Part shown: piece by piece, positions 43,551-63,997 of the stretch | Layout: each line of letters opens with the position of its first letter | Position numbering within the stretch: position 1 is the stretch's first letter | DNA from: an uncultured Planctomycetales bacterium | Lineage (GTDB): Bacteria; Omnitrophota; Gorgyraeia; Zapsychrales; CAYRXT01 | DNA: 64,000 bases | Direction of reading: 5' to 3' | Assembly: GCA_964428315.1 (NCBI GenBank) | Contig: CAYRXT010000008.1 | Coordinates: 6,140 to 70,139, forward strand | Position numbers and translations under genes: made by a program | Notes under the pieces: generated by a model | What the model was told of the DNA's origin: nothing | What the model saw: the letters and a program-made list of their open reading frames with translations, nothing else | Database searches by the model: none

Positions 43551-43656
43551 TGAAGCTCCAGAGTTTAGAAGTTAGTGAATGAGTCTTTAGTGTAAGAAGC
43601 CCTGCCGATCCGTTTGATATAAGTGAGCTCCCGGGGAGTTCTTTCAGATTGCCTTT

Positions 43657-43724
43657 CCCGACGACACATCCTGAAGGATCTTATTGATCCGTCACCGCTG
43701 CGCTCCTCGGGATGAGTCGTCGGG
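43657..43724. promoter_or_regulatory. nested palindromic structured element in the 200-bp wzm-wzt gap
   Basis: Outer stem CCCGACGAC/GTCGTCGGG, inner CATCC/GGATG, innermost GGATC-TTATT-GATCC. Confidence 0.35.
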
Positions 43725-43752
43725 AGATGTTGTCCAGAAACTCGACGCCCCC

Positions 43753-44538: not shown

Positions 44539-44573
44539 AGAATCAGTCTTTCCTTTTTTGGGTTAATGAGGTA

Positions 44574-47179: not shown

Positions 47180-47200
47180 ATTCTTGTCTTCCGGATTTAT

Positions 47201-48064: not shown

Positions 48065-48617
48065 TATAAGTGAAGTTCGATTCCAGGTTCGATAGACCCG
48101 GATAATTCGCGTCCCGCTCGCAAACTATCGGATTCTCAACGGGCCACTGTATGGCGATCTCCGGGGCGTTCCATCTAAGCCCCCTTTCGTGTTCCGGCGA
48201 ATATTCGCGGGAACAATAATAGATAACCTGCGCGCTCTGTGAAAGGACGCAGAAACCGTGGGCAAACCCTTCCGGGATATAGAGCATTTCCTTGTCTCGG
48301 TCGTTAAGCCGCCGCCCGACCCATTTCCCGTAACACGGCGAACCTTTACGCAGATCGACAGCCGCGTCGAAGATCTCGCCCTCGACGACGCTGACCATCT
48401 TCATTTGCGCCTCGGGATTAAGCTGGAAATGCAGCCCGCGCAGGACGCCTTTACGGCTTTTTGAATGATTGACCTGCTTTACCGGTGAACGCAGTCCGCT
48501 GTGGACGAAATCCGACTCCTTGAACGTCTCCAGAAAAAAACCGCGTTCATCCGAAAATATTTTCGGTGTGACGACATGCAGCCCGGGAATTTCTAATTCT
48601 TTGAACGTGAACGGCAT
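48054..48617 (-). CDS. rfbC: dTDP-4-dehydrorhamnose 3,5-epimerase
   Basis: Cupin fold. RGLHFQ, HGFCVLS and YSPEHERG motifs. Confidence 0.9.
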   Translation of the reverse strand: MPFTFKELEIPGLHVVTPKIFSDERGFFLETFKESDFVHSGLRSPVKQVNHSKSRKGVLRGLHFQLNPEAQMKMVSVVEGEIFDAAVDLRKGSPCYGKWVGRRLNDRDKEMLYIPEGFAHGFCVLSQSAQVIYYCSREYSPEHERGLRWNAPEIAIQWPVENPIVCERDANYPGLSNLESNFTYNGT

Positions 48618-49489
48618 TATTCGATCTCCGCGATGCGTTTGAGGTATTCCCCGTATGAGGTGTTGATGTTTCCGGCCAGCTCCAATAAGCGGTCCCGTCC
48701 GATGAAGTTTTTGATATAGGCGACCTCCTCGATGCAGCCGATCTTCAGCCCCTGCCGCTCTTCCACTGTCTTGATGAACATGGAAGCGTCAATCAACGAA
48801 TCATACGTGCCGGTGTCCAGCCAGGCGTAGCCCCGGCCCAGCGGCATGATGTTTAACCGTCTGTTTTTCAGGTAGTCCTGTATGACATCAGTGATTTCCA
48901 GCTCTCCCCGCCCTGATGGCTTGAGTGCCTTGGCGATGTTGACGCAATCATTGTCAAAGAAATACAGCCCGGTGACGGCCCAGTTGGATTTGGGCTGCCG
49001 GGGCTTTTCTTCTATGGACACGGCCTTCCAGTCCCGGTCGAACTCAACGACGCCGTAGCGTCGGGGGTCACGCACAAAATAGGCGAAAATGGTTGATTGC
49101 GGCTTGTCTACCGCCTGGCGCAGGCATTCGGACAGTCCGTGTCCGAAAAAGACGTTATCACCGAGTATCAAGGCCACTCTGTCCTCACCGATAAACTCTT
49201 CTCCGATGATAAGGGAATCCGCCAGACCGCGAGGACTTTCCTGTTCGGCGTAGGTTATGTTTATCCCTATGTGACCGCCGTCTCCCAGCAGGTCCTTGAA
49301 CCGCGGCAGGGCCTGCGGCGTCGAGATCAACAGGATATCCTTTATCCCGGCCAGCATCAGGACCGACAGGGGATAATAGATCATCGGTTTGTCATAGACG
49401 GGAAGAAGCTGTTTGGACACGCCTTTGGTAATGGGATAAAGGCGGGTTGCTCGGCCGCCAGCGAGAATAATGCCTTTGGTTTTTGTCAT
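48617..49489 (-). CDS. rfbA: glucose-1-phosphate thymidylyltransferase
   Basis: [16 protein letters not shown] motif. Start refined to MTKTKG. Confidence 0.9.
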
Positions 49490-49512
49490 GAACGACGGTC
49501 CTTTCAATTGAA

Positions 49513-49590
49513 GGTCACCATGTCACAAAGTCACAAGGTCACAAAGTCACAAGGTCACCTATGTCCCGGTGACAAGGTGAACTAGTGACC
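49513..49590. repeat. octamer tandem repeat GTCACAAR x4.5 plus inverted GGTCACC/GGTGACC copies in the rfbA upstream region
   Basis: Sequence gtcacaaa-gtcacaag-gtcacaaa-gtcacaag-gtcac, followed by ggtgacaagg...gtgacc. Minus strand reads TTGTGAC repeats (CRP/FNR-like half sites). Confidence 0.7.
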
Positions 49591-50556
49591 TTATTTTTCT
49601 CCCCATACCTTTTTACAATATTCAACCGTCTTCCTCAAACCGCCTTCAAAATCGACGAGAGGTTCAAAACCGGTTTTCTCTCTGATCCTGCTGATATCGC
49701 CGTGAGTCTTGAAGACATCCCCCGGGCGCACAGGAAGAAATTGCGGTTTGATGTCCTTGCCGAAAATTTTGTTCAGGACCTCAACAAGCTGGAGGACGGT
49801 GTGGTCCTTTCCGTTCGCCACGTTCAGGACTTCGTGTTTGATGCCGGGCGCGGTGGCCGCCAGGTAATTGGCCGATATAACGTTTTCGATGAAGGTAAAG
49901 TCCCGCGACTGTTTTCCGTCTCCGAAAACCGGCGGCTGCTGGTCATGCATGATGCAGTGAATAAACTTGGGCACGACGACGGCGTATTCGTCATCAAGCG
50001 CCTGGCGGGGGCCGAAAACGTTGAAATACCGCAGACAGACCGTTTCCAACCCGTAGTGCTCGGAGAAAATGCGGCAGTAATATTCACCGGCAAGCTTGCT
50101 TAAGGCGTAAGGCGAAATCAAAAGCGGATAAAACGTTTCGCTTTCCGGGAAACTGTCCGTGTCGCCGTAGACGGAGCTGGACGAGGCCATGACCAGCCGT
50201 CTTATCTTCTTTTGGGACGCCGCCCTTAAGAGCGTCAGGGTGCCGTTGATGTTGACGTCATTGTAACTGTAAGGGTCGTCCATGGACTTCGGTACGGACC
50301 GCAGAGCGGCCTGGTGAAGCACATAGTCCATCCCATCGCATGAGGCATGGCAGGTTCCGGCGTCCCGGATGTCCCCCCGAACAAGCTCAAACCTATCCTT
50401 TCCCAACCCTCGGGCAAAAACCAGGTTTTCTTCTTTGCCCGAATAAAAATTATCCAGGACCCGGACGAAATGTCCGTCCGCAACCAGTTTTTGTGCGATA
50501 TTGGATCCTATAAAACCGGCCCCGCCGGTGATCAGATATTTTGACATGGATGCCAT
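49591..50556 (-). CDS. NAD-dependent sugar-nucleotide epimerase (WbpP/CapD-like UDP-GlcNAc 4-epimerase family)
   Basis: ITGGAGFIGSN, YALSKLAGE (YxxxK), NVFGPRQ motifs. Confidence 0.85.
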   Translation of the reverse strand: MASMSKYLITGGAGFIGSNIAQKLVADGHFVRVLDNFYSGKEENLVFARGLGKDRFELVRGDIRDAGTCHASCDGMDYVLHQAALRSVPKSMDDPYSYNDVNINGTLTLLRAASQKKIRRLVMASSSSVYGDTDSFPESETFYPLLISPYALSKLAGEYYCRIFSEHYGLETVCLRYFNVFGPRQALDDEYAVVVPKFIHCIMHDQQPPVFGDGKQSRDFTFIENVISANYLAATAPGIKHEVLNVANGKDHTVLQLVEVLNKIFGKDIKPQFLPVRPGDVFKTHGDISRIREKTGFEPLVDFEGGLRKTVEYCKKVWGEK

Positions 50557-50601
50557 TCCTTTCGTTGACAGCGCGGCGAAACCCGCGCGGAGACTTAATC
50601 A

Positions 50602-51387
50602 TTACAGATATCGGTAAATATATTCCGGCAGGTGATATTCGACATTCACCAGGACATACCCCAGCAGATGGACATGCGCCTGATGAAGGAGTTCAGTTGC
50701 CCGGTCGACTATGCCCCTCTGCGTTCGGCCGGCCTGGATGACAAGCAGGGCTCCGTCCGTGTACGAACCGATAATGCCGGGGTCGGTCACGGAAATGAGC
50801 GGCGGGGTATCGATAAGGATAAGGTCGTATTTGTGTTTAAGCTCGAATATGAGGTTTTTCATTGTGTCCGAGCTGACAAGTTCGACAGGATTGTGCGGGG
50901 TGATCCCGGACGCCATAAAGGTCAGGTTTTCCATGTCGATTTTGAACAGGGCCTCGTCCGTTTTGACTTCGCCGGAAAGGACGTCGCTCAAGCCCACTTC
51001 CTGATCCACGCCGAGATACTTCTGAACTCGTCCCCGGCGCATATCCGCGTCAATCATCAGAATTTTCGGTTTGTGCATGAGCTGGGCGAACGAGATGGCG
51101 AGGTTCAGTGCCGTAATGGACTTGCCTTCCGAGTGGATGGAGCTTGTAATGGTGATGGCCTTGGGGGCCTTCCCCTTGTTCATAGACATCAGATTGGTCA
51201 TCAGTATTTTGTATTGTTCCGTGATAGGGGACTTGGCGTCAAAATAGGAAACGATCCGCGGATCGATGTTGGACCCTTCCATTTTTTTGACCACCATGCT
51301 GTCATGTTGTTTGATACGGCTGATGCGGTCAAGACGCGTGATCTTGTCTTCGGTCGCCTTTTTGAGGGCGTCGGTTATTCTTCCCAT
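50602..51387 (-). CDS. BY-kinase-type tyrosine autokinase / P-loop ATPase (CpsD/CapB-like, PEP-CTERM-locus type)
   Basis: Walker A SEGKSITALN, Walker A-prime and B (MIDADMRRG, LILIDTPP), tyrosine-rich C-terminus. Confidence 0.8.
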   Translation of the reverse strand: MGRITDALKKATEDKITRLDRISRIKQHDSMVVKKMEGSNIDPRIVSYFDAKSPITEQYKILMTNLMSMNKGKAPKAITITSSIHSEGKSITALNLAISFAQLMHKPKILMIDADMRRGRVQKYLGVDQEVGLSDVLSGEVKTDEALFKIDMENLTFMASGITPHNPVELVSSDTMKNLIFELKHKYDLILIDTPPLISVTDPGIIGSYTDGALLVIQAGRTQRGIVDRATELLHQAHVHLLGYVLVNVEYHLPEYIYRYL

Positions 51388-51420
51388 GATTTTCCTTTCA
51401 TGAAGTTTGTGTGTTTCCCG

Positions 51421-51630
51421 TTAATCCATTAAAAAGCTGTTGAACTGTTTTTGGATTTTTGCCGTCAAGGTTTCCATGCGACGGATATCCGTTCGGACCT
51501 TGCGGGCATTGTTCCGCATGTGCTCAATATCCCGGAGCAACAGAAAAGAATGCCAGGAGGTTTTCGGAATATCCCCTGTCTTCGACCTGTTGTCCTGCAC
51601 TTTTTTTAAAGCCATGATGATACGGCTCAT
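51421..51630 (-). CDS. small hypothetical protein (69 aa)
   Basis: ORF only. Operon-compatible spacing. No recognisable family. Confidence 0.3.
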   Translation of the reverse strand: MSRIIMALKKVQDNRSKTGDIPKTSWHSFLLLRDIEHMRNNARKVRTDIRRMETLTAKIQKQFNSFLMD

Positions 51631-51643
51631 GCCGCGCCCCCTC

Positions 51644-52171
51644 CTATTTCTGATTCTTCAGCTTATTGATCTCGCTGCTCGTTATCCTGTTCAAATCATT
51701 AATATAGGCCCGCAGAGCGTTGTTGGACACAGTAAGCTTGCTGATACCGTCCTCAGCCTCTTTCAGGGCTCGACGGGTCTCTGCCACGCTGGTTTCCATG
51801 GTCTTGAGACTGTTTTCATTTTGGAATTTAAGATTTTTCACGAGACGTTGAAGATCCGCGATCTGTTTTTTGTATTCATCGATTTCCCACGTTTCTTTGT
51901 AGCGATATTGATCGGCCAATGCCGCGGCCTCACGCACATGAAAAAAGGATTTCAAGCTCATGACAAAAGACAGCCCGCTGATGATCCCGATCAACGCCAA
52001 CAGGCTGACATGAAAATGGACGGCTGGCCTAGCGGAACTGCCGCTGACGATCCTGCCGGTACCATACGTCTTGATGTCCGGATCCGGCCCGCCGGCCTTC
52101 TGCGCCCCTTCCGTTTTGCCTGATGGACGTGAGCCCTTGGCTTTATCGAGTTCTTTAATCGTCTTGCTCAT
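51644..52171 (-). CDS. membrane-anchored coiled-coil protein (GspB/ExeB-like partner candidate)
   Basis: Cytoplasmic N-terminus, one TM helix (VHFHVSLLALIGIISGLSFVM), coiled-coil C-terminus. Immediately downstream of the ExeA-like ATPase. Confidence 0.45.
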   Translation of the reverse strand: MSKTIKELDKAKGSRPSGKTEGAQKAGGPDPDIKTYGTGRIVSGSSARPAVHFHVSLLALIGIISGLSFVMSLKSFFHVREAAALADQYRYKETWEIDEYKKQIADLQRLVKNLKFQNENSLKTMETSVAETRRALKEAEDGISKLTVSNNALRAYINDLNRITSSEINKLKNQK

Positions 52172-52206
52172 TTCTTCCCTCGTTCTTGTTGGTAAATATC
52201 CGGGGA

Positions 52207-53130
52207 TTACTGCCGTTCAAAAAACAACGACTCCCATGATGCGGGTTGATCCTGTTCAAACAAATCCGGCGGATGAGAAGCCAGGATGCGTTCGATGTCT
52301 TCCTTGGAGGCCTTTGACGCGATCTGGTTCATCGGCGAATCCTGGATGGCCTCAACAAGTATCTTTTCGTCAATCACATCGGCGCCGCAGGTGTACCCCG
52401 CCAGGAGGGCGCTGTCGCAGATCTGGTTGACAAGCCGCGGGACCCCTTTGGAAAATGCGAAAACCAGCCGCAGGGCTCCTTCGGTAAAATACCGCCTCTC
52501 CGATCCGCTGGCTAGCCTCAACCTGTGCACTATATAGTTAAGGCATTCTTCCTGCGTCAGCGGCTGAAGATGATAATAGACGGCAATCCGCTGTCTGAGC
52601 TGTTCCAGCCGGTTCAGGGCAAGTTTCTGTTTGAGCTCAGGCTGTCCCAGCAGGATAATCTGGATAAGCTTTTCCGACTCCGTCTCCAGATTGGAAAGCA
52701 TCCGGATCTCTTCCAGTACGGAAGGAGAAAGATTCTGGGCCTCGTCAACGATCAGCACGACGTTGTGGTCATACCGCAATTGTTCGATAAGATATTGATT
52801 AAGCTGCGACAACAAGCGGGCCTTGGACCCGTTCGCGTACTCCACCTCCAGATCGTCCAGAATCGTCATCAGGAGGTCCTTAGGCGTAAGGTGGGTATTG
52901 GTGATCAGCGCCGTGTGGGTATCGCTTTCCAGTTTATTGAGCAAAGTCCGGCACACGGTCGTTTTGCCCGACCCGATGTCGCCGGTTATGACCACGAAGC
53001 CCTTTCGTTCCAATATCGCGTAAATGAGCGTGTTCAAAGCCTCGGCGTGTTTGCCGCTTTCGAAAAAGTATTTCGAATTAGGCGTGATGCTGAAAGGTAT
53101 TTCCTGAAATCCGTAAAAGTTTTTATACAT
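52207..53130 (-). CDS. ExeA/GspA-like AAA ATPase (PEP-CTERM-locus secretion ATPase type)
   Basis: Walker A GDIGSGKTT and Walker B LIVDEAQNL. Start refined to MYKNFYGFQE. Confidence 0.8.
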   Translation of the reverse strand: MYKNFYGFQEIPFSITPNSKYFFESGKHAEALNTLIYAILERKGFVVITGDIGSGKTTVCRTLLNKLESDTHTALITNTHLTPKDLLMTILDDLEVEYANGSKARLLSQLNQYLIEQLRYDHNVVLIVDEAQNLSPSVLEEIRMLSNLETESEKLIQIILLGQPELKQKLALNRLEQLRQRIAVYYHLQPLTQEECLNYIVHRLRLASGSERRYFTEGALRLVFAFSKGVPRLVNQICDSALLAGYTCGADVIDEKILVEAIQDSPMNQIASKASKEDIERILASHPPDLFEQDQPASWESLFFERQ

Positions 53131-53155
53131 TATGTCTCCCTTCCGAGCAAACGTG

Positions 53156-54439
53156 TTACTGCAGGAATATCGAAGCCGCCACGGCCATGCACACACAGAT
53201 AACACCCATGATGATTGTCAGGGTCACCACCCAGCGGTTATGGTCCTTTTCACTGCGGATGCTTTCCAGGGTGCTGATTCTGGAAACCGCCCCCAGAAGC
53301 GGCCGGCCGAGATATTCCTTCGCGTCTTCAACGTCAAGAAACGACTTGTCAAGGAATTCTGTCCCGACCACAAGACCGACGCCGATGGTACCCCCCAGCA
53401 TCAACCCGGCGAAGGCCAGAAGGAGCTTGTTTGGTTTGAATGGTTTGAGGGGAAGCCGGGCCGGATTAAGGATCTTGTATTTTGTGCCTTCTTTTGAGGC
53501 CTGAAGGCGCTGGGTTATCTTTGCCGTCTCCAGGCGCTGGAGCAGCATGTTATAAATGCCCTCGTTAACCTGCACGTCCCTGGCCATGACATTGTCCAGT
53601 TTTTCCGTGAGCATGACCTTGGCGATTCCGGCCTCAATGATGTCCCCGCCTTCATCGCTGGGCGTCGTTTCCACCTTCTTCAAAGCCTTTTTGATTTCAT
53701 CGATCAGAGGGTTTGTCGACTGCATTTTCAAGACAGAACTCTCGGTGAACTCCAGATTCTCCTTACTGAGCTCCTCCCTTTTTGCGGCGATCTGTTCGCG
53801 CAGTTGTTTGACCAGCGGATGTTTTTCCGTCGAATCGATGAGCAGGGCGTCAAGCTGTTCCTGCAGCTGGGCGATCTCGGCGGATTTAATCTTGCCCTTA
53901 TAGACCTGTAGCTGTTCTTCAATGAATTTGATCGCGTCGGCTGTTTCCTGGTTCTGGATCTGCACGTTGCGTTCGATAAAGATATCTGTCAAGTTTTTCA
54001 CGATGGCCTGTGTGGATCCGGGGTCGGCGCCGGCATAGGAAAGGTCGATGATGTTGGTGCCGCGCATGGAGATGTCGACCTTGTCCCGTATCCCCAGGAC
54101 AAGTTGCTCGAAATCATATGTTGTCTTGATGTCCTTGTCGAGATTCAGACGCTTGACGAGAGTGACAAGGCTGTCCCAGCCGAGCATCGATTCGCGGATT
54201 GTCGCGAGCCGCTGCTGCACGGTCGTTGATACCGCGATATTCTGAAAAAGCGGGTTGTCGGTTTTCCCTTCCTCGACAAGAAGGATGGTAGAGGACTTAT
54301 ATTCCTTGGGCATGAGGATCCCCGCGCAGATGCCTAAAACCAGTCCGAAAAAAACGGGGACAAAAAAGAGCAGCTTCCTTCGAAAAAAGATCTTCAGAAA
54401 ATTCATCGGGGTCAACGTGATCTGCTTTTGATAGCTCAT
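53156..54439 (-). CDS. polysaccharide chain-length determinant (Wzz-like) protein
   Basis: N-terminal TM, long coiled-coil periplasmic region, C-terminal TM plus GxxxG-rich segment. Confidence 0.8.
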   Translation of the reverse strand: MSYQKQITLTPMNFLKIFFRRKLLFFVPVFFGLVLGICAGILMPKEYKSSTILLVEEGKTDNPLFQNIAVSTTVQQRLATIRESMLGWDSLVTLVKRLNLDKDIKTTYDFEQLVLGIRDKVDISMRGTNIIDLSYAGADPGSTQAIVKNLTDIFIERNVQIQNQETADAIKFIEEQLQVYKGKIKSAEIAQLQEQLDALLIDSTEKHPLVKQLREQIAAKREELSKENLEFTESSVLKMQSTNPLIDEIKKALKKVETTPSDEGGDIIEAGIAKVMLTEKLDNVMARDVQVNEGIYNMLLQRLETAKITQRLQASKEGTKYKILNPARLPLKPFKPNKLLLAFAGLMLGGTIGVGLVVGTEFLDKSFLDVEDAKEYLGRPLLGAVSRISTLESIRSEKDHNRWVVTLTIIMGVICVCMAVAASIFLQ

Positions 54440-54484
54440 TGCGTGATTATTACTCCTTTGTTTGTCGTGCGTTGTTTTATACCA

Positions 54485-55309
54485 TCAATATCCAGGATAA
54501 ACCGAACGGGCTGTCCCGGCCGTACTGCCGATGGGCTGTGTCACCGGGCTGATGACCCTCATGGCCTTGGCCATGACCGTGGCCGGTATATACAGGGTGT
54601 CTCCGGGTTTCATGATGACATTCTCCCGGAGATCTCCTTCATAAAGCAGAGCAAAGACATTGACGTATTTGATGTCGGGTTTGCCGTCTTCGGATGGCGT
54701 AATTAACCTGCATTTTTTGGTTGAGGCGCTTAACAGAGGAAGTCCGGCCTGGACCAAGGCCTCGCGGATTGTGATAACGTCACCCTGCATGAATATTTTT
54801 CCGGGCGCGCCGACCTCTCCGATAACGTAGACTATCTTGCTGTTGTATGCCGTAATCTTGACTGTGACATCAGGGGAAATAATGTATTCCGACAGGATAT
54901 CCGTCAGAACATTGGTGAGTTCATCTTTTGTTAATCCGGCAACCTTAACGTCGCCCACGTAGTCATACTGGATTTTCCCTTCCTTATTGATCTCGAATTC
55001 ACCGCTGAATTCCGGGTGCCGGAGAACAGAAATCTCGATCACGTCCGTTGGGCCCAAGGTGTAATTGCTCGGGTCGCGCAGTCCCACCTCCATGGGCGCG
55101 GTTTTTAGAAGCTCCGTCAGTTCATCGTTCTTTTCCAATGGTTCTTTGAGGAGAGAACCTGTTTGGGCCGAATTCAACGCGGCCTCGCTTTCCTCGGATT
55201 CCTTCCCGTAAAAATTCGCGAAATTCTGAGCCTCCGCCTGACCCGCCGTTATCAGCAGGGCAAAGACAATGAGACCGATACAGATTATACAGAATGCCAG
55301 TCTTTTCAT
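54485..55309 (-). CDS. periplasmic polysaccharide export protein (Wza/EpsE-like)
   Basis: Signal peptide. Poly_export motif (LGPTDVIEISV) and SLBB-like domains. Confidence 0.85.
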   Translation of the reverse strand: MKRLAFCIICIGLIVFALLITAGQAEAQNFANFYGKESEESEAALNSAQTGSLLKEPLEKNDELTELLKTAPMEVGLRDPSNYTLGPTDVIEISVLRHPEFSGEFEINKEGKIQYDYVGDVKVAGLTKDELTNVLTDILSEYIISPDVTVKITAYNSKIVYVIGEVGAPGKIFMQGDVITIREALVQAGLPLLSASTKKCRLITPSEDGKPDIKYVNVFALLYEGDLRENVIMKPGDTLYIPATVMAKAMRVISPVTQPIGSTAGTARSVYPGY

Positions 55310-55330
55310 TAGATCACCTCTTCCTTTATA

Positions 55331-55546
55331 TTAGTCAAACAGAGCCTCATGAAAGGCCTTGATTCTCGATACGTCATCTTCGTTATAGACCCTCCATCCA
55401 CGCCAATCGCGTTTGGGTCTTTTGACTTTTCCCATGCTTTCCCAGCGGGCAATTGTTTTTGTACTTACCCCGATAATCCTGGCAACATCGGTGATAGTAA
55501 GCCTTTTGCGCACCTGTACCCCCCCTTCAATTTGCTCTTTAATCAT
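55331..55546 (-). CDS. MerR/excisionase-type HTH DNA-binding protein; first gene of the supercluster
   Basis: LTITDVARIIGVSTKTIARWESMG helix-turn-helix. Start refined to MIKEQ with RBS AAAGGCGG. Confidence 0.65.
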   Translation of the reverse strand: MIKEQIEGGVQVRKRLTITDVARIIGVSTKTIARWESMGKVKRPKRDWRGWRVYNEDDVSRIKAFHEALFD

Positions 55547-55601
55547 ACGATAACCGCCTTTCAAAAAATGTAGGTTACAATTTCGTATACCAGAATATAG
55601 A

Positions 55602-55616
55602 GCAATTATCATACCA
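55602..55616 (-). promoter_or_regulatory. candidate sigma-54-type promoter (TGGTAT-N5-TTGC) upstream of the HTH gene
   Basis: Minus-strand TGGTATGATAATTGC with correct GG-N10-GC spacing, about 45 nt upstream of the refined start. The -24 element deviates from TGGCAC. Confidence 0.25.
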
Positions 55617-55922
55617 TTTAAGAAAACGATTTCTCATATCTAAATAATTATTATAACTTATTGTTGGTATAAAGGTTACATAATTGCACAGAGCTAATTT
55701 ATTGCTGAGTTGAATAGTCATGTATTTCTGTATGTTTAACATAATTAACAATAATGTCTATGACATGGTAGGACAATCCCAGAAATTATGCGTTAAGTTG
55801 CATTTATGTCATGTCTAACAATTTGAACCATAAGTAAGTCCTTTTTAAACAAATAGTTAGAAGGAATTTTGATAATCATTTGAAATTTGTAATATTTGGA
55901 TCCGCATGGTATACTTTTTGCT

Positions 55923-57284
55923 ATGGACCAGCGTCTATCAAAATTGCAGGTTCAAAAACAGATATTATCTCCTGTTATGCAGAGGTCGATTACCATCCTG
56001 ACCCTGCCGATCACGGAACTCAACCAGGCCATTGAAACAGAGCTTCAGGATAATCCTTTTCTCGAGTCCGAAGAAGACATGAACCAGATGGTTGAATTGC
56101 CGCCAGAGGGCGCCCCAACGTCTTTGGAATTGATGTATCAGATGGCCGAGGATGAGCTTCCTGATAAGTCTACGGGTAAGAAGGAAGAGGTCTTTTTCCG
56201 GGTTGCCCAGGCCATATCCTTAAGCGATTATCTTCTTCAGCAGCTTCGTATTGAGCTAAGCGATCCGGAAGATATCAGGATCGGTGAGGTCATTATAGGG
56301 AATATCAACGATAACGGTTATCTTACGGTTTCTCTTGATGACATCGCGGGGCAATGCGGATTAACCGAAACCGGCAGAATCCTGCGCATTCTTTCACGCA
56401 TTCAAACATTTGATCCGCCCGGGGTGGGGGCGAGAGATATCAAGGAGTGCCTTGCTATTCAGCTGGACAACCTGGAGTGGGACGACAAGCCTTTGGCCTT
56501 ACAGATCATTCAAGATCACTGGGATGATCTGGCGAAGAAGAGATTTGACCTGATTGCCCGACGTTTGAGCATTTCCACGGAACGGACGAAACACATATTT
56601 AACTTTATCTCAGGGCTCGAGCCGAAACCGGCGCGCAATTTTTTCCCGATCAACACGCAAATCTATGTCAAACCGGATCTGTTTGTCGTCAGGCAAGGTG
56701 ACGGCCTTGAAGTCAAAATAAATTCCGAGGGGGTCCCCCTTTTGAAGATCAGCCCGCTATACAGGGCAATGCTCAGAAAGGAGAATTTAACCGACGAGGA
56801 AAGAGCTTTCTTGAAAAACAAAATGGAAAGCGCCGTGCAGTTTATACGCAGCATCAGACAAAGAGAAACCACTTTGCGCAATATCGCCGAGGATATTCTC
56901 CGTCATCAACAGCGATTTTTTGAGATGGGCCCTGTCGGGCTGTGCCCCCTGACTTTAAAGGACGTCGCCGGACGCATCGACCGCGATGAGTCAACGGTCT
57001 CGCGCACTATCCGCAACAAATATATGGACACGCCGATGGGGATCTTTCCCATGAAGTTCTTTTTTTCCAATGCCGTGGCCATGGAAAATAACGGCAAGAC
57101 AACTTCACGGGGCATCAAGGAAGAACTTAAAGAGCTTATTAACGGCGAAGATAAAACGAAACCTCTTTCTGACCAGGCCATTGTTGAATATTTCAGGAAA
57201 AAAGGGATGATATTGGCCAGGAGGACTGTCGCCAAATATCGTCAGAACTGCCGTATTTCTCCCTCCCATCTCCGTAAGGAATAA
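55923..57284 (+). CDS. rpoN: RNA polymerase sigma-54 factor
   Basis: N-terminal LQQxL-type region I (MDQRLSKLQVQKQILSPVMQRSITIL), C-terminal HTH and RpoN box ARRTVAKYR. Confidence 0.9.
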   Translation: MDQRLSKLQVQKQILSPVMQRSITILTLPITELNQAIETELQDNPFLESEEDMNQMVELPPEGAPTSLELMYQMAEDELPDKSTGKKEEVFFRVAQAISLSDYLLQQLRIELSDPEDIRIGEVIIGNINDNGYLTVSLDDIAGQCGLTETGRILRILSRIQTFDPPGVGARDIKECLAIQLDNLEWDDKPLALQIIQDHWDDLAKKRFDLIARRLSISTERTKHIFNFISGLEPKPARNFFPINTQIYVKPDLFVVRQGDGLEVKINSEGVPLLKISPLYRAMLRKENLTDEERAFLKNKMESAVQFIRSIRQRETTLRNIAEDILRHQQRFFEMGPVGLCPLTLKDVAGRIDRDESTVSRTIRNKYMDTPMGIFPMKFFFSNAVAMENNGKTTSRGIKEELKELINGEDKTKPLSDQAIVEYFRKKGMILARRTVAKYRQNCRISPSHLRKE

Positions 57285-57393: not shown

Positions 57394-60300
57394 TTATGGC
57401 CGTGTCTGGTATGAATAATCCTTTGTCCACCAGGCACCATCGATCAAAATCCACAGCCTTACGTAGATTTTCGTGTTATTAAGCGGGATGCCGGTGACTG
57501 TCTGCGATGTCGCCATGTGAACATTTTTGCTGTAGATATCGCCCCAGGGATCGACTTTGACTGAACTGAAGGTCGTCCCCACGCTGAGCCAGTAGGCGGA
57601 GGCCCGCGGGTCGGAATCCCAGGAGAAGTTCACAGTCGCGGAGGTGATCGCGGCATTGTCCCCCAGGTGGACGCTCTGATCTTGATCAACTTCTGTCATG
57701 CAGGAGGCGTCACAACCGTCGTTGTTGTTCGTGTTGCCGTCATCACATTGCTCCGAACCGTTTACTGTGCCGTCTCCGCAATATTCGGCGGATACGCATG
57801 ATGCAAAGGCGGAGCATTGATCGTCACAGCTTTGGGTTCCGGCATAACCGTCCGTAGTGGTGCACGACTGGACGTTAGAATCACAGACTTCTTTTCCGTT
57901 GGTCATACCGTCCCCGCAATATTCGGTTGCGATGCACTCACTGTATCCGGAGCACTGGTCATTACATGACCGCGAACCGGCGTAGCCGTCTTCCGTTGTG
58001 CAGATTTCGCTATCGTTGTCACATATCTCCGAGCCTGTGACCATTCCGTCACCGCACACGTCCGTCTGACCGGAGGCTGTCGTCTGATAAGAATAATCCT
58101 TGGTCCACCAGGCACCGTCAATCAAAGTCCACAGCCTTACGTAGATTTTCGTGTTATTAAGCGGGATGCCGGTCACAGTCTGCGATGTCGCCATGTGAAC
58201 ATTTTGGCTGTAGATATCGCCCCATGGATCAACTTTGACTGAACTGAAGGTCGTCCCCACGCTGAGCCAATAGGCGGAGGCTCGAGGATCCGAGTCCCAA
58301 CTGAAATGAACGGTGCTGACACTGATGGTGGCGTCTCTCCCGAGATGCACAGCCTGGGATTCAAGACGGCAGCCGGCACTACACCCGTCTCCCCCGCTGT
58401 TATTGCCGTCATCGCATTGTTCGTTTCCATTGACGGTACCATCGCCACAGCTTTCAGTGGTCGAACACGTCCCAAAACCCCCACAATGGGCGTCACATAA
58501 CTGTGTGCCCGCATAGCCGTCGGTCGTTGTGCAGCTTTGCGCATTCGAATCGCATACTTCGCTGCCATTCACCATGCCGTCACCGCAATATTCGCTTGTC
58601 GTGCATGCGCCAAAAGCTGAGCAATTATCGGAACACGTCTGCGTACCGGAATAACCGTCTGCAGTAACACAGACCCGGGAAGCTGTATCGCAGATTTCGT
58701 TTCCGTTTGTTGTTCCATCTCCGCAATACTCGGATGTCGAGCATGAGCCGTACCCCGAACACTGGGCGTTGCACGTCTCTGTCCCGGCGTATCCTTCAGC
58801 GGTTGTGCATGACTGAGAGTCGGCATCGCAGGCCTCATCCCCGTTCGTTGTCCCGTCGCCGCAGGATTCGGTTGTCACGCATTCCGTGTTATACCCGCTG
58901 CAATCCGATTTGCACGCCTGCGTGCCGCTGTAGCCCTCGGCTGTCGTACAGGACTGCCCCTCTCCATCGCAGGTTTCATTGCCGTTGAGGATACCGTCTC
59001 CGCATGATTCTTCGGCAACGCAGGAACCGAAGCCGGTGCACTGCGCGTTACATGTTTCTGTACCCACATAACCGTCGTCAGCGATGCAGGACCGGCTGTT
59101 ACCGTCACAGACCTCTTCCCCTTCGATCTTCGCGTCTCCGCAATAGGTGAGCGATTGGTTTTCACTTCCCAAAACGCCAATTTCCGCGACGCATGTCCAT
59201 GGGTTGCCGTTAACCTCCGACAGCGCAACAAATTTAAAATACCGTCCGGTGTGCACTGAATTGAAGAGAACCTCTTTCTCTGAACTGGAATTGACGAAAG
59301 AACCGCTTGCCGCCAGCGAATCCCAAGCAATTCCGTCTTCGCTGATGTAAAACTCGTAATCTTTGACATTTCCATTTGATCCGCCATCCTGACGCGGGAG
59401 GTAACGGAATCCGCTCACATCATATGTCGCCCCCAAATCCACAATGATATAATGAGGATGTTCGGGAGATGTGTAGTACCACTCTGTATGCCATTCCGAT
59501 GTCGTGTCATCATCAAAGGCGTTTACTGCGGCATCATTATCGCTGTTCATTTCCTGGCTGTCGAAGTCGATCAGAGTCCAATTGGCCTTTGAGATGGCAA
59601 CAATCAGAGTCGAAACGGAAATCGAATGATCCGCCATATTGCTTAAAACACCATCAGAAACCGAAAAACGAAACGTGTAATCTCCATCTTGTCCACTCAC
59701 TGGCGACCAGGTCAGCGTCCCTGTTCCATCGCCGTTATCGACAAATACCGCCCCCAGAGTCGTCACCTCATCCAAAACATCGCCGTTGACGACGTGTGCC
59801 GTAAGCGTAAGCGGGTCCCCGTCCGAATCGCTGGCGCTGACATTAACGCTCGCGGCGCCTCCGGTTTCAATCGACGCATCACCGGAAACACTGATGACAG
59901 GCGCGTGATTGATATCCCCGACCGCGATGCTCGTTGTGTCATCATCACTCAAACTCCCGTCGCTGACGGTCAGGGTGACGGTGTACTCTCCAGTCTGGGC
60001 GTAGGTGTGCACGGGGCTTTCTTCGCTGCTTGTCTGGCCGTCGCCGAAGTCCCATTCATAGGAATAGCCGGCATCCGGCAGGAAGGATTGGCTGCCGTCA
60101 AAATGGACAGTCAAATGATCCGTGCTGGCGACCTGAATAACCGCTACCGGCAGGGCCTGATCGGTCGAACTGACCCGTATCTGATGGGTTCCAGTACCCC
60201 AGAATTCATGCCGGGCAAAACCCTGATCGCTAACGTTCAGGGCGGATTGGGTGCCGTCAATGCTGATAGTCCATGCCTTTGCCGGATCCAGGTCAGCGAT

Positions 60301-62433
60301 GTAGACCTCGGTATAGGCGTCAGAATTGACATTGATGACAAAGCCGGTTTTGAAAAGGCGCAGGGAGTTTGTCTTGGAGAACCTTTCCGGATCGTGCGCG
60401 GCACGGTAATTTTCAAAAGGCGTGGGCGAAGGCGGGGTGTTTTCCGTCCCGTTGAATATGGCCAGCTTATACGTGTCCACGCCCGCCATTAATACCCCGA
60501 CCGCGTCCTCGTCCGCCACGGATAGCAGTTTGGAAAAGTCCGCCTGGCTGCCGACATGAACGACGTTGGCCAGTGTGAGAAAACCTGTCTTTTGTGTCGG
60601 GATGATCCTCAACTGATATTTAAGTTCCCCGTCCCTCATAACCCCGGTCAGGTAAAGAGGATGCCCGGCGTTGTAGAGACTCTGTTCGTCATAGATCTGC
60701 AATGAGTAATCGTCTACCAGGGTTCTCAGGGTGACTTCTTCCCCGTTATCGGCGTGCCATTTTATGGTGTCGCCGCTGATGTTGGGATTGGCGTCAGGTA
60801 TATGGAGGATCCACTGATGATAGGCGTTGGCCGCGTCGATGCGCTCTTCGATGTAATCCGGTATGCGTTCGTAGCGCCAGGTCGGCATGGTGTTCGTATC
60901 CTTGGGATCGCTGACGTTAAGGCGGTCAAACACCACGATAGTGTCCGAGCCGTCCGTATTATGCCAGTACATTGTACTGCGGTTCCATTCATGGACGAAC
61001 TCCAGCGGAGGATCGTAGTAGTTGCTGTGAACCAGCTGTCCGCCGGTGGTCCCTGAATGATAAAGGAAGGTGTCGCCCGCTTCAAAGGCGCCTTCCCCGA
61101 AGGCCTCGTTCGCGCCGGCGACGCCGCCTGAAATAAGCATGCCGTTCATGTACGGCCCTTCGACCTTGCCGCCGTAATACCCTTTGGGATTCGAGACCGC
61201 CCATCCGCCGTTGCGGTAGAGATTGAAGTTTGTCAGCGATTCCCTGTCATGATCCACGTAGGTGTAGTTGAACATCGTCGATGCGTAAAAACTGTCGTTG
61301 GAGCCCCATCCGCTGTGATGGTACGCGATCCCGTGACCCGAGGCGTGATGTGATGTGATTCCGGCGGGAGCCTGACGCGAGGAGTAGGGATCCACGAAGT
61401 ACGGCCAGCTGGGACCGGTGTTCGTCGTCCCGTTGGCCTCGTATACGACGTCGAACAAATACAGAGCCTCCGGATCCCTGGATAACGCGCTCACCATCGC
61501 CATAAGGGGAACGCGGTTCCAGTAACGCAAATCGTGGGGGTTCTGCTCGTCGCCCCACTGAAAGGAATCTCTGAAGTTCGGGGTCATCTGCTGAACCATC
61601 GCTTCGGCAAAATCATCATATAATGCCGTAACGTCCGGAAATTTATCTTCTCCGTAATAGGCGTTGATTGCCGAGGCGCCCATAAGAAGATATTGCAGAG
61701 TCCCCAGGTTGTAATTCGAGCTCTCCAGCCATTCGCCGCCTACGGATATGCCGGTCGTGTACCGCTTGATGGTATTGCGCCATGTGGAGGTGTTTGCGCC
61801 GGTGGCGTCCAGCCCTCCCACAGGTTTGATGAAATCATTTCCGGCGAAATTGAGGATCTCGCTGGCCCTGGTGGGATCTTCGTCCATAAGGGCAACGGCG
61901 TAACAGGCCACGCCGAAATAATGTCCCGTCATTTCGTCCGAGTCCCACGTCCGCGTCCCGTGGCCGGTGGAAAAGACCAAATCAACCCAATGGTCGAGTA
62001 TATCCCGGTAGTTCGCGCGATCCGTCGATGAAAGCGCGTCAGAAATCCAGTCGTAAAGAATCGCCAAATTCGTGAAGTTATGGCGGGTGGAATTGCGGGA
62101 TGGTTCGGCGCAGCCCGACGGGCGGTAAGAATCCCCGCACCACCAGTTCACCCTCTGCCACGCCGAGTAGGCATATGAGGTGTCTCCGGTGATCAAGTAA
62201 ACCAGCCCGTCACGCAGTCCGTCGTCGCCGTAGAGATTGGACGTATCGGCCTGCGATTTCAGACGCTGCCAGAGCGGATGGTTTTCATTGTACATCTGGG
62301 TCCAGAGCTGCTGCTGGTCAGCGGACCACCCCACCTTGTTCTGGGCCCAGGCGTCGCATAGAAAAACGCCCGATAGCGCAAAAAATACCGTTGTCAAGAG
62401 AACAAACAGCTTTTGAAAATTTGATTTACTCAT
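57394..62433 (-). CDS. giant secreted multidomain protein: heparinase II/III-like lyase-like N-terminus, PKD/Ig-like modules, F5/8 discoidin domain, about 12 Myxococcales-type Cys-rich repeats, duplicated about 90-aa C-terminal domain
   Basis: Signal peptide MSKSNFQKLFVLLTTVFFALSGVFLCDAWAQN with RBS GGGGAGG. Repeats CGDG-NG-E-CD-C-GY-GT-C. Two near-identical C-terminal domains (SAYWLSVGTTFSSVKVDPWGDIY...). Confidence 0.85.
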   Translation of the reverse strand: MSKSNFQKLFVLLTTVFFALSGVFLCDAWAQNKVGWSADQQQLWTQMYNENHPLWQRLKSQADTSNLYGDDGLRDGLVYLITGDTSYAYSAWQRVNWWCGDSYRPSGCAEPSRNSTRHNFTNLAILYDWISDALSSTDRANYRDILDHWVDLVFSTGHGTRTWDSDEMTGHYFGVACYAVALMDEDPTRASEILNFAGNDFIKPVGGLDATGANTSTWRNTIKRYTTGISVGGEWLESSNYNLGTLQYLLMGASAINAYYGEDKFPDVTALYDDFAEAMVQQMTPNFRDSFQWGDEQNPHDLRYWNRVPLMAMVSALSRDPEALYLFDVVYEANGTTNTGPSWPYFVDPYSSRQAPAGITSHHASGHGIAYHHSGWGSNDSFYASTMFNYTYVDHDRESLTNFNLYRNGGWAVSNPKGYYGGKVEGPYMNGMLISGGVAGANEAFGEGAFEAGDTFLYHSGTTGGQLVHSNYYDPPLEFVHEWNRSTMYWHNTDGSDTIVVFDRLNVSDPKDTNTMPTWRYERIPDYIEERIDAANAYHQWILHIPDANPNISGDTIKWHADNGEEVTLRTLVDDYSLQIYDEQSLYNAGHPLYLTGVMRDGELKYQLRIIPTQKTGFLTLANVVHVGSQADFSKLLSVADEDAVGVLMAGVDTYKLAIFNGTENTPPSPTPFENYRAAHDPERFSKTNSLRLFKTGFVINVNSDAYTEVYIADLDPAKAWTISIDGTQSALNVSDQGFARHEFWGTGTHQIRVSSTDQALPVAVIQVASTDHLTVHFDGSQSFLPDAGYSYEWDFGDGQTSSEESPVHTYAQTGEYTVTLTVSDGSLSDDDTTSIAVGDINHAPVISVSGDASIETGGAASVNVSASDSDGDPLTLTAHVVNGDVLDEVTTLGAVFVDNGDGTGTLTWSPVSGQDGDYTFRFSVSDGVLSNMADHSISVSTLIVAISKANWTLIDFDSQEMNSDNDAAVNAFDDDTTSEWHTEWYYTSPEHPHYIIVDLGATYDVSGFRYLPRQDGGSNGNVKDYEFYISEDGIAWDSLAASGSFVNSSSEKEVLFNSVHTGRYFKFVALSEVNGNPWTCVAEIGVLGSENQSLTYCGDAKIEGEEVCDGNSRSCIADDGYVGTETCNAQCTGFGSCVAEESCGDGILNGNETCDGEGQSCTTAEGYSGTQACKSDCSGYNTECVTTESCGDGTTNGDEACDADSQSCTTAEGYAGTETCNAQCSGYGSCSTSEYCGDGTTNGNEICDTASRVCVTADGYSGTQTCSDNCSAFGACTTSEYCGDGMVNGSEVCDSNAQSCTTTDGYAGTQLCDAHCGGFGTCSTTESCGDGTVNGNEQCDDGNNSGGDGCSAGCRLESQAVHLGRDATISVSTVHFSWDSDPRASAYWLSVGTTFSSVKVDPWGDIYSQNVHMATSQTVTGIPLNNTKIYVRLWTLIDGAWWTKDYSYQTTASGQTDVCGDGMVTGSEICDNDSEICTTEDGYAGSRSCNDQCSGYSECIATEYCGDGMTNGKEVCDSNVQSCTTTDGYAGTQSCDDQCSAFASCVSAEYCGDGTVNGSEQCDDGNTNNNDGCDASCMTEVDQDQSVHLGDNAAITSATVNFSWDSDPRASAYWLSVGTTFSSVKVDPWGDIYSKNVHMATSQTVTGIPLNNTKIYVRLWILIDGAWWTKDYSYQTRP

Positions 62434-62461
62434 TGTACGACCTCCCCGGGTGCCCCCCGAT

Positions 62462-62495
62462 TAAAAAAACCCAGGTCCAAAGAGTCGGCCTGGGT
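62462..62495 (-). terminator. intrinsic terminator T2 (CCCAGG-13 nt loop-CCUGGG plus U7), 30 nt upstream of the giant-gene RBS
   Basis: Minus-strand CCCAGGCCGACUCUUUGGACCUGGGUUUUUUU, followed by AAUCGGGGGGCACCCGGGGAGGUCGUACA-AUG. Confidence 0.7.
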
Positions 62496-62539: not shown

Positions 62540-62622
62540 TCGCGTTTTCGGCAGCCAGGCTGTCCCTCTCAAGGACCCTGTGACTTTGCGTCCCCGCCTT
62601 ACGACGGGTTTGCCTTTATCGT
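62540..62622 (-). ncRNA. c-di-GMP-I (GEMM) riboswitch-like aptamer, copy A (gene-proximal)
   Basis: Minus-strand UAAAGGCAAACCCGUCGUAAGGCGGGGACGCAAAGU... then a second hairpin and CUGCCGAA. Parallels V. cholerae Vc2 (ACAGGGCAAACC-AUUC-GAAA-GAGU-GGGACGCAAAGCC...). Confidence 0.7.
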
Positions 62623-62656
62623 TACTTTTCTGAAAGAGCGGTGCGGCCGCGATGGC

Positions 62657-62690
62657 CAAAAAAAAACCTATTACGCAAAGTAATAGGTTC
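62657..62690 (-). terminator. intrinsic terminator T1 (CCUAUUAC-UUUGC-GUAAUAGG plus U9) between the two aptamers
   Basis: Perfect 8-bp stem followed by nine U on the minus strand. Confidence 0.75.
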
Positions 62691-62700: not shown

Positions 62701-62792
62701 GATCCTTCGGCAGTCAGGCTGCCCTTGAACCATGCGTTCAGGGCCCTATAACTTTGCGTCCCCGCCTTACGGCGGGTTTGCCTTTGTCGGTG
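62701..62792 (-). ncRNA. c-di-GMP-I (GEMM) riboswitch-like aptamer, copy B (promoter-proximal)
   Basis: Minus-strand CACCGACAAAGGCAAACCCGCCGUAAGGCGGGGACGCAAAGU-UAUAGGGCCCUGAACGCAUGGUUCAAGGGC-AGCCUGACUGCCGAAGG. GNRA (GUAA) tetraloop on P1. The variable second hairpin keeps its base-pairing relative to copy A. Confidence 0.7.
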
Positions 62793-62990: not shown

Positions 62991-63392
62991 TCAAAATTGC
63001 TTTTCGTAACATTCTTTTTTTAATTCGGATTTTTCCCGCTGTATCCAGTAAGAGTTTTTTTCCGGCTCAAGCGGCTGGTCTAGCAGATCCTTGCGGAGCA
63101 AACGAAGAACCAATCCAATGATGCCGAACATAAGATAAAATACCGCGCCCAAGATAAAACCGGTGACAACCGCTCCTATAAAGTGAGCCACCTTCATCCA
63201 CCGGTCATACACCAGCTTGACATGATCCAGCGAGAAGACCGTCAACAACAGGAAAAAACCGGACATGGTTATCAGCGCGAATGGCACAAATCCCGCTCCG
63301 TGCTTTATCCAAAGCCTGGAACCGATAAACCCCAGGATCAGGAATAGGCCATAACCGAAAACCTTCAAGTTTCTCATCTCTTTTGGATTCAT
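62991..63392 (-). CDS. SxtJ-family-like small membrane protein
   Basis: 133 aa, three TM helices. Immediately downstream of a carbamoyltransferase gene, the typical context of SxtJ-like proteins. Family call from memory. Confidence 0.5.
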   Translation of the reverse strand: MNPKEMRNLKVFGYGLFLILGFIGSRLWIKHGAGFVPFALITMSGFFLLLTVFSLDHVKLVYDRWMKVAHFIGAVVTGFILGAVFYLMFGIIGLVLRLLRKDLLDQPLEPEKNSYWIQREKSELKKECYEKQF

Positions 63393-63394
63393 CG

Positions 63395-63997
63395 TCAGTC
63401 CAGGATCAAGGACATATCCTCTTTTTTGTATTTGTCTTTGTCAGGCTGTTTTTCCTTCTCAAAAATCAGGTTCTCAATCACCAGGTAATCCATATTCGTG
63501 CACATAAAGCAGCGGTAGGCATCGGCCGGCGTACACACGATGGGTTCTCCGCGTATGTTGAAAGACGTGTTGATCACCACCGGGCAACCCGTCAGCTTGT
63601 AAAATTCATTAAGGACCTGGTAATACAGCGGATTGGTCTTTGCGGAAACGGTCTGTATCCGCGCCGAATAATCGACATGCGTGACCGCGGGAATGACGGA
63701 ACGACGGACCTTCAACTTTTCCAGTCCAGCCGCATTCATGTTCCGGGAGCCCTCGTCAATCTTGTCTTCCTTGACATTCGCGACCAGGAGCATGTACGGA
63801 CTGGGGCAATCCAGTTCAAAATATTCCTGACAGTAGTCTTCGAGCACGCTCGGCGCGAACGGCCGGAACGATTCCCGGAATTTGATCTTCAGGTTCAATA
63901 CAGACTGCATTTTTTCGCTCCGGGCGTCCGCGATGATACTGCGGCTGCCCAGGGCGCGCGGGCCGAATTCCATGCGTCCCTGAAAAAGGCCGACCAC
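63395..63997 (-). CDS. NodU/CmcH-family carbamoyltransferase, C-terminal part (5' end beyond window)
   Basis: EFGPRALGSRSI, FRPFAPSVL, IPAVTHVDYSARIQTV, NTSFNIRGEPIV motifs of the carbamoyltransferase C-terminal domain. The ORF runs off the window edge. Confidence 0.8.
   Translation of the reverse strand: MVGLFQGRMEFGPRALGSRSIIADARSEKMQSVLNLKIKFRESFRPFAPSVLEDYCQEYFELDCPSPYMLLVANVKEDKIDEGSRNMNAAGLEKLKVRRSVIPAVTHVDYSARIQTVSAKTNPLYYQVLNEFYKLTGCPVVINTSFNIRGEPIVCTPADAYRCFMCTNMDYLVIENLIFEKEKQPDKDKYKKEDMSLILD

Follow-up and report, generated by a model that had tools for sequence, protein, structure and literature searches.

A putative secreted multi-module polysaccharide lyase preceded by two c-di-GMP-I riboswitches beside a surface-polysaccharide island of an uncultured bacterium

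We analyzed a 64,000-nucleotide (nt) stretch of DNA, hereafter the window, from an uncultured Planctomycetales bacterium that the GTDB taxonomy places in Omnitrophota (assembly GCA_964428315.1, contig CAYRXT010000008.1, positions 6,140 to 70,139 of the forward strand). The gene of interest is a single unbroken open reading frame (ORF) on the minus strand (57394..62433) that starts with ATG and encodes a protein of 1679 amino acids (aa), followed by a stop codon. An identical protein is recorded a single time, at NCBI, on a contig of 74,220 bp. Upstream of the gene lie two aptamers of the cyclic di-GMP (c-di-GMP)-I class (Rfam clan CL00126). The encoded protein consists of a signal-peptide-like N-terminus, a large catalytic module, three modules (PKD, Big_9 and F5/8 type C) that probably bind glycans or surfaces, and two blocks of cysteine-rich repeats, each of which ends in one domain of about 90 aa resembling fibronectin type III (fn3) domains. 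In the direction of transcription, the features of the locus are the following.

62705..62791, minus strand: c-di-GMP-I class aptamer 1 (Rfam RF03167, 69.6 bits against a gathering score of 59)
62658..62690, minus strand: intrinsic terminator 1, an 11-bp stem and nine T (62658-62666), from a terminator scan and the minimum free energy (MFE) fold
62546..62623, minus strand: c-di-GMP-I class aptamer 2 (RF03167, 69.4 bits against a gathering score of 59)
62463..62495, minus strand: intrinsic terminator 2, ACCCAGGCCGACUCUUUGGACCUGGG followed by U7, from the MFE and centroid folds of the leader and the sequence
62441..62445, minus strand: Shine-Dalgarno motif GGAGG, 7 nt 5' of the ATG, from the sequence
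62344..62433, minus strand: signal-peptide-like N-terminus, aa 1-30, with AWA/Q, read from the sequence
60154..62343, minus strand: catalytic module, aa 31-760, from 51 homologues, an AlphaFold2 (AF2) model, Foldseek and profile matches
within 60154..62343, minus strand: helical toroid domain (about aa 31-346) and beta-sandwich domain (about aa 360-756)
59920..60150, minus strand: PKD domain, aa 762-838 (PF18911, E 5e-20, 71.7 bits against a cut-off of 27)
59614..59910, minus strand: Big_9/cadherin-like bacterial immunoglobulin (Ig) domain, aa 842-940 (PF17963, E 3.5e-9)
59179..59544, minus strand: F5/8 type C (discoidin, galactose-binding-like) domain, aa 964-1085 (PF00754, E 1.3e-21)
58360..59142, minus strand: Cys-rich block 1, aa 1098-1358, five long repeats and one short canonical TIGR02232 repeat
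58081..58350, minus strand: fn3-like domain copy 1, aa 1362-1451, modeled with seven strands
57691..58056, minus strand: Cys-rich block 2, aa 1460-1581, two long repeats and one short repeat
57403..57672, minus strand: fn3-like domain copy 2, aa 1588-1677, from sequence comparison with copy 1

The N-terminus (MSKSNFQK-LFVLLTTVFFALSGVFL-CDAWA/Q), examined by eye, is basic, then hydrophobic, and then reaches AWA/Q. It reads like a Sec signal peptide, and the alignment with the homologue from Omnitrophota begins at the homologue's own hydrophobic N-terminus. A lipoprotein was ruled out given the Leu at position -1 of Cys26, unlike a lipobox, and sorting signals of the PEP-CTERM, LPXTG and T9SS kinds were ruled out given a C-terminus (...YSYQTRP) that has neither a hydrophobic tail nor a Pfam match. 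The original prediction, made from the sequence before any database search, had read Ig/PKD-like modules and a discoidin domain downstream of the catalytic module, and Pfam bore out both. There is one PKD domain, in a region that also scores above the gathering score of PF00801 (E 4.5e-12, 46.2 bits against 23.5), one Big_9 Ig domain, in a region where Cadherin_5 stays under its cut-off, and one F5/8 type C domain, which spans positions 9-127 of the 127 profile positions (77.5 bits against a gathering score of 28.2).

Searched as a single sequence, the catalytic region (aa 31-759) produced no Pfam match even at E ≤ 10 and no sequence match in the PDB. A homologue search retrieved 51 proteins with 26-47% identity, nearly all without Pfam annotation over the module. 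The AF2 model built from the family alignment (predicted local distance difference test score, pLDDT, 95.6; predicted template modeling score 0.94) is helical as far as residue 316 or so, with strands between about 330 and 726. Comparison of this model with the PDB by Foldseek placed heparinase II of polysaccharide lyase (PL) family 21 first (2fut; E 1e-28, template modeling (TM) score 0.66), followed in order by PL39, PL15, PL17, PL35, dermatan-sulfate (DS) epimerase 1, PL33, PL12 and PL8. The families of the heparinase-like fold span E-values from 1e-28 to 1e-8, with glycoside hydrolases far behind, and the top 29 matches are, without exception, toroid-plus-sandwich lyases or DS-epimerase. 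Searched against the PDB, the family profile likewise matched heparinase II (E 1.9e-16, four colinear segments) and, more weakly, PL35 (E 4.7e-6) and the PL15 alginate lyase Atu3025 (E 8e-5). Recognition of the lyase fold thus depended on the family profile and the structure model, the single sequence being insufficient. By the modeled structure and the profile alignments, the module is remotely related to heparinase II (PL21) and PL15 alginate lyase. The original prediction of a heparinase II/III-like alpha/alpha-toroid lyase is therefore upheld as regards fold and remote homology; the Pfam Hepar_II_III search proposed along with it gave no match, so that this check alone would have failed.

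In the heparinase II and PL15 families, beta-elimination at uronic acids is the work of a Tyr/His pair. Across the 52 sequences compared (the 51 homologues and the window protein), sixteen positions never vary; they include Arg117 and the candidate active-site residues Tyr241, His395, Asp164, Asp166, Arg219, Glu237, Asn242, Asp295, Asn430 and Asp503. His395, in a VDH motif, aligns with His406 of heparinase II in the family profile and with His531 of Atu3025 in a sub-profile of 26 sequences, which was the source of the residue-level PL15 alignment (E 1.1e-4 against the PDB; a sub-profile of 12 sequences found nothing). Tyr241, in the motif GEWxESSxYN, aligns with Tyr365 of Atu3025 in GGWAEGPHY365W, where GGWAE is the counterpart of the GEW-E motif of the family. 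The catalytic residues of the reference lyases, including the Tyr and His of Atu3025 and the His of heparinase II, are tabulated in a published comparison; by those residue numbers, the spacing from Tyr to His ranges from 130 to 166 residues across PL12, PL15, PL17, PL21, PL35 and PL39 (PMC12088678). The spacing between Tyr241 and His395, 154 residues, falls inside this range, and, as in the lyases of this fold, the Tyr belongs to the toroid and the His to the sandwich. Because the Tyr/His pair is kept, the module would be expected to cleave an acidic polysaccharide; this lyase activity is predicted from the model and the alignments.

Ahead of the gene, two complete aptamer-plus-terminator units are arranged in series on its strand. 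The original prediction had placed the gene under tandem riboswitches, and the layout agrees with such control, which is itself predicted. Both aptamers cover all of the RF03167 model (positions 1-80 of 80) and are the sole Rfam matches in the window, which contains no tRNA or rRNA. RF03167 models the c-di-GMP-I-GGC variant, which Weinberg et al. reportedly defined in 2017 by a G replacing the intercalating A after GGGACGC. At the positions where the RF03167 consensus has GGGACGCGAAg, the sequence of the two aptamers is GGGACGCAAAG, with A, not G, after GGGACGC, so that the variant nucleotide is absent from them. They look like canonical c-di-GMP-I aptamers despite scoring best with the GGC model, and the RF03167 label may mislead on the ligand specificity of both. 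Aptamers of the cyclic GMP-AMP type were set aside, given that both carry a G at the inferred selectivity position, directly before GCAAACC.

In unit 1, the MFE fold of the nascent prefix contains a 12-bp antiterminator that pairs the aptamer core GCAAAGU.AUAGG (62745-62757) with the left arm and loop of the terminator, CCUAU.ACUUUGC (62675-62687), and the aptamer and terminator do not overlap. The full-length alternatives of this unit are close in energy (-53.3 kcal/mol with the antiterminator forced, compared with -57.0). Because the aptamer and terminator are non-overlapping and the unit 1 antiterminator competes with the ligand-binding core, the folding leans towards an OFF layout, in which bound c-di-GMP favors termination; we hold this direction somewhat likelier than its opposite. 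Serial arrangements of this kind are common among c-di-GMP-I riboswitches, for which 347 doublets and 12 triplets are on record; the tandem layout sharpens the response, and a validated triplet from Bacillus thuringiensis gives a more digital one (PMC9481103).

The tails of the family members vary and carry CBM96, PKD or fn3 domains or nothing. The closest homologue, a 1352-aa protein from a Candidatus Omnitrophota metagenome-assembled genome (MAG; L001, JACKFK010000009.1), aligns over 760 aa, signal peptide included, at 47% identity and carries two CBM96 modules. Its locus (7574-13966) has a c-di-GMP-I match of its own at 9711-9794 (35.7 bits against a gathering score of 35), 114 nt 5' of the start of the homologue and followed by a terminator, which supports the riboswitch link independently. 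A gene for a PAS-GAF-GGDEF diguanylate cyclase lies just upstream, and genes for a response regulator and a TPR protein lie downstream. An Rfam scan of 13 further homologue loci yielded no additional riboswitch, and this locus was the sole match in a scan of 23 homologue loci for the GEMM motif.

Three family members are tied to phages (phage or phage-like loci L010 4401-7910, L012/L013 8001-11297 and L015 8001-10430). One (P0007) is encoded within a phage structural module, alongside Gp80, Gp77, Mu-like_Pro_N and holin genes. Another (P0011) lies on a densely packed contig that looks phage-like and whose neighboring genes have no Pfam matches. The third (P0013) is encoded by phage MN582090.1 next to a cell-wall hydrolase (Hydrolase_2) gene and bears the depositor's name 'Oligo alginate lyase'; it is very probably identical to the BFVD match A0A5Q2W4E8 (the same length of 809 aa; 36% identity, TM 0.78). 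The module of the window protein had no match in the INPHARED phage collection (tblastn) or in PHROGs. Carriage by phages suggests that these relatives serve as depolymerases. The catalytic family, which spans several phyla and phages and has no Pfam or NCBIfam model, may represent a new lyase family for CAZy, and depolymerases might be drawn from it. At one further locus (L009, 10001-15790), two paralogues of the family, P0001 (874 aa) and P0002 (952 aa), occur in tandem with a 102-aa ORF between them, and the pair is flanked by transposase genes and a Wzy_C gene.

A surface-polysaccharide synthesis and export island occupies positions 38875-55309 on the minus strand. It encodes Wza-like, Wzz/GNVR, AAA_22 ATPase and ParA-like kinase proteins, an epimerase, RmlABCD, Wzy_C, Wzm/Wzt, DUF2334/deacetylase and an oxidoreductase. 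In composition, the island mixes components of Wzy-type export (Wzy_C, Wza, Wzz/GNVR, ParA-like) and of ABC-type export (Wzm/Wzt with Wzt_C). Between the Wza-like gene and an rpoN-like gene lies an AT-rich stretch (55310-55999; GC content 0.32 at 55500-55999 compared with about 0.50-0.55 around it); the annotation of an overlapping public contig (L014) has a MerR-family gene of 71 aa in this stretch. In the same contig the rpoN-like gene is 435 aa long, compared with a 462-aa ORF with a TTG start in the window. Directly upstream of the riboswitch leader, also on the minus strand (62991-63997), are genes for a carbamoyltransferase C-terminal domain protein and a small SxtJ-like membrane protein. 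The carbamoyltransferase/SxtJ pairing is familiar from saxitoxin-type clusters; here it stands beside polysaccharide genes.

On balance, we consider it probable that the gene encodes a secreted multi-module lyase, gated by c-di-GMP and aimed at a polymer of the extracellular matrix or capsule. Transcription would pass the two riboswitches serially, each with its own terminator; bound c-di-GMP would favor termination, and the enzyme would be made when c-di-GMP is low. The protein would be exported by Sec and act outside the cell as a polysaccharide lyase, its module cleaving an acidic polysaccharide through beta-elimination by Tyr241 and His395. Because the gene borders the Wza/Wzz/Wzy/Wzm-Wzt/Rml island, the likeliest substrate would be the matrix or capsule polymer of the cell itself, cleaved for remodeling or dispersal. 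The exopolysaccharide (EPS) matrix role foreseen in the original prediction fits this neighboring island. Should the enzyme indeed degrade the matrix of its own cell, with c-di-GMP switching it off through the two riboswitches in series, this would be a purely RNA-based link from the second messenger to matrix degradation, and dispersal control would become testable in an uncultured lineage. A more far-reaching version, which we regard as tentative and rather doubtful, is that the module founds an undescribed PL family common to bacteria and phages, with an Asp-x-Asp motif in place of the usual Asn/His neutralizer, and that in one sub-lineage (this organism and the Omnitrophota MAG) the family has come under c-di-GMP riboswitches, where it would act as a self-matrix dispersal lyase, off at high c-di-GMP.

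Several observations weigh against this interpretation. In the catalytic module, no counterpart was found for the carboxylate-neutralizing residue or the second base. The region where the neutralizer would be expected (Asn, Glu or Arg, some 51-57 residues ahead of the Tyr in the fold superfamily) is covered by no alignment; candidates are the invariant Asp164 and Asp166, which precede the Tyr by 75-77 residues with a loop insert of about 23 residues, or Arg219/Asn220. His202 and Glu205 of heparinase II fall near the invariant Asp164-x-Asp166 by extrapolation from the end of the aligned segment, the heparinase II zinc ligand His408 is not conserved in the family, and no counterpart of His311 or Arg314 of Atu3025 was found in it. 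Hepar_II_III (PF07940), DUF4962 (PF16332) and all other Pfam and NCBIfam models miss the module, and the family has no characterized member. As to control, the OFF call derives entirely from thermodynamic folding, which is weak for riboswitch 2 (the candidate antiterminator of unit 2, GCCUGG/CCAGGC, gives -50.4 compared with -58.0 kcal/mol), and of about 20 homologue loci only 2 have a riboswitch. The monocistronic gene is parted from the island by the convergent downstream rpoN-like gene, and its link to the polymer is one of proximity alone. Finally, human DS-epimerase 1 (6hzn) has the same fold (Foldseek E 8e-16, TM 0.53). Epimerases and lyases of the heparinase-like fold share the first step, proton abstraction, and this common chemistry, together with the fold match and a position beside a biosynthesis island that would suit a modifying role, speaks for a polymer-level uronate C5-epimerase or other modifying enzyme that edits the exported polysaccharide (for example glucuronate to iduronate or mannuronate to guluronate, by the same Tyr/His proton abstraction). 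Yet the 15 best Foldseek matches are all lyases, profile-level homology extends to lyases only, and phage-borne homologues make sense as depolymerases, not as epimerases. We rate the epimerase as unlikely and the least probable of the alternatives.

Two other alternatives leave the chemistry or the target different. The protein might be mainly an adhesin or matrix scaffold, with the lyase-like module serving as a non-catalytic glycan-binding head and ON riboswitches co-expressing it with the matrix at high c-di-GMP. Binding and spacer modules (aa 761-1679) do account for over half of the protein, the second riboswitch is ambiguous in direction, and c-di-GMP riboswitches often drive adhesins and surface proteins, tandems being common (347 doublets; PMC9481103). 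Against such a head stand the 16 residues, including the catalytic Tyr and His, that stay invariant across 52 sequences at 25-48% identity, a pattern from which we argue that catalysis is retained, and against ON control stand a unit 1 antiterminator that disrupts the aptamer core and an aptamer that does not overlap its terminator, as in an OFF layout. We judge the scaffold unlikely, although the likeliest of the three alternatives. An enzyme that forages on foreign acidic glycans (algal, host or EPS of neighbors), with the adjacency to the EPS island coincidental, appears slightly less likely still. Heparinase, alginate-lyase and ulvan-lyase relatives are typically nutritional, F5/8 type C and PKD modules are frequent on such secreted enzymes, and the monocistronic gene with an rpoN-like gene between it and the island would suit a separate function. 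No uptake, uronate-catabolism or polysaccharide utilization locus-like genes adjoin the gene, however; the predicted control is by a lifestyle signal, c-di-GMP, and not by a substrate sensor; and the closest homologue adjoins GGDEF and response-regulator genes. We therefore retain the c-di-GMP-gated lyase acting on the cell's own polymer as the preferred interpretation.

The remainder of the protein is built from repeats. By motif count, there are nine CGDG-type repeats in two blocks (6 + 3) rather than the 12 or so originally estimated. Seven are long, with 46-47 aa and six Cys each; the other two (R6 and R9) are short and fit the canonical four-Cys pattern CGDGxxxxxExCDDGNxxxGDGCSxxC. The region matches TIGR02232 in NCBIfam (E 1.6e-25, 88.6 bits against a cut-off of 20.8), as anticipated, and DUF4215 in Pfam (E 4e-11, 43.5 bits against a cut-off of 27). 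A search with the Cys-rich block returned 409 DUF4215 proteins. The best match, a Candidatus Omnitrophica protein with 55% identity, likewise has several long repeats ended by one short repeat, and the layout of block 1 recurs in protein P0210; further matches come from Polyangiaceae, Bdellovibrionales, Dehalococcoidia, Acidobacteria and Nanoarchaeota. Of the earlier designation of these repeats as Myxococcales-type, the TIGR02232 type thus stands and the taxonomic restriction does not: as the database matches indicate, the name is historical and not a taxonomic marker. Both the lyase module and the Cys-rich block have their best matches in Omnitrophota proteins. With an fn3-like domain at the end of each, the two disulfide-rich blocks probably make up a stiff stalk or anchor.

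The two C-terminal copies of about 90 aa that were originally noted are present at aa 1362-1451 and aa 1588-1677. They are identical at 81 of 90 residues (90%) and at 228 of 270 nt (84%). Identity is concentrated in the last 201 nt of the domain (57403-57603 compared with 58081-58281), with 188 of 201 positions matching (93.5%; 93-96% in 45-nt windows). The first 48 nt are 56% identical, and the Cys-rich repeats that precede the copies are 50-67% identical at the DNA level. The figure of about 95% DNA identity over about 310 nt given at the outset therefore holds approximately for a core of about 200 nt and not for the whole domain. In a Nei-Gojobori analysis, synonymous sites are saturated in the first 23 codons (proportion of synonymous differences, pS, 0.95), whereas the last 67 codons have a synonymous distance (dS) of 0.31 and a nonsynonymous distance (dN) of 0.013. 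This abrupt drop of dS from saturation to 0.31 suggests an old duplication with a later homogenized tract of about 200 nt, produced by gene conversion or partial re-duplication. The original inference of a recent duplication thus stands as to the duplication and needs revision as to its age, given the saturated flanks and the dS of the tract; judged by these distances, the homogenized tract is not very recent either. Assembly collapse is an unlikely origin of the duplicate because 42 of 270 nt, as well as the flanks, differ between the copies.

Neither copy matches the Pfam fn3 model (PF00041). Among 100 sampled repeats of the family, none reaches a Pfam cut-off; one is touched by fn3 (E 0.004) and 18 match Big_7 weakly. 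The structure prediction that had been proposed for the domain yielded a confident model of a seven-strand, fn3-like sandwich (pLDDT 95.3), whose best fold matches in the PDB are fn3 domains of DCC and neogenin (TM about 0.63, root-mean-square deviation 2.4-2.9, probability 1.0, but E 0.01); the domain profile has a marginal match to an fn3 domain of MyBP-C (E 0.44). By this model, the domain is a divergent fn3-like repeat and not a new fold. A word-indexed homologue search with the domain returned nothing, and an exhaustive HMMER search retrieved 2496 representative proteins (at 50% identity), 329 of them under E 1e-30. In the best 150 of the 2496 (P0052-P0201), on which all array statistics are based, the repeats follow each other head-to-tail with a period of about 92 aa, in a median of 6 and a maximum of 22 copies, and the array reaches the C-terminus in 109 of the 150; the window protein is the only one in which Cys-rich repeats are interleaved between the copies. 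Median identity between copies is 58% within one protein compared with 39% between proteins, and a pair of copies at least 85% identical occurs in 24% of the proteins. Homogenization within a protein is therefore common in this family, and the tract in the window gene is ordinary for it. With at least 2496 representatives and no Pfam model, the repeat marks a gap in the domain databases and is a candidate for a new domain model.

Set against known systems, the findings extend known kinds and overturn nothing; the main leads are the uncharacterized lyase family and its recurrent association with c-di-GMP riboswitches. Heparinase II of Pedobacter heparinus (CAZy PL21; PDB 2FUT/2FUQ) likewise combines a helical toroid and a beta-sandwich in about 730 aa and is the best match by both fold and profile, yet its identity to the module is only 14-15%, and it lacks an accessory tail, which the window protein has. 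The exotype alginate lyase Atu3025 (CAZy PL15; PDB 3A0O) matches the fold at E 2e-18, with sequence similarity visible through the deep profile alone. Compared with the Myxococcus-type repeat proteins (TIGR02232/DUF4215), R6 and R9 are alike, whereas the other seven of the nine repeats are of the longer six-Cys variant. The phage-encoded depolymerase relatives carry the same module; the window gene, in contrast, is chromosomal, with a signal peptide and riboswitches and no phage genes nearby. A full-text literature search for c-di-GMP, riboswitch and polysaccharide lyase returned no paper whose title or abstract opening describes such control. The known c-di-GMP-I tandems have the same serial layout as the leader described here, in which two units should steepen the response; what differs in the window is that the gene behind them encodes an enzyme with a lyase fold and that the predicted direction is OFF.

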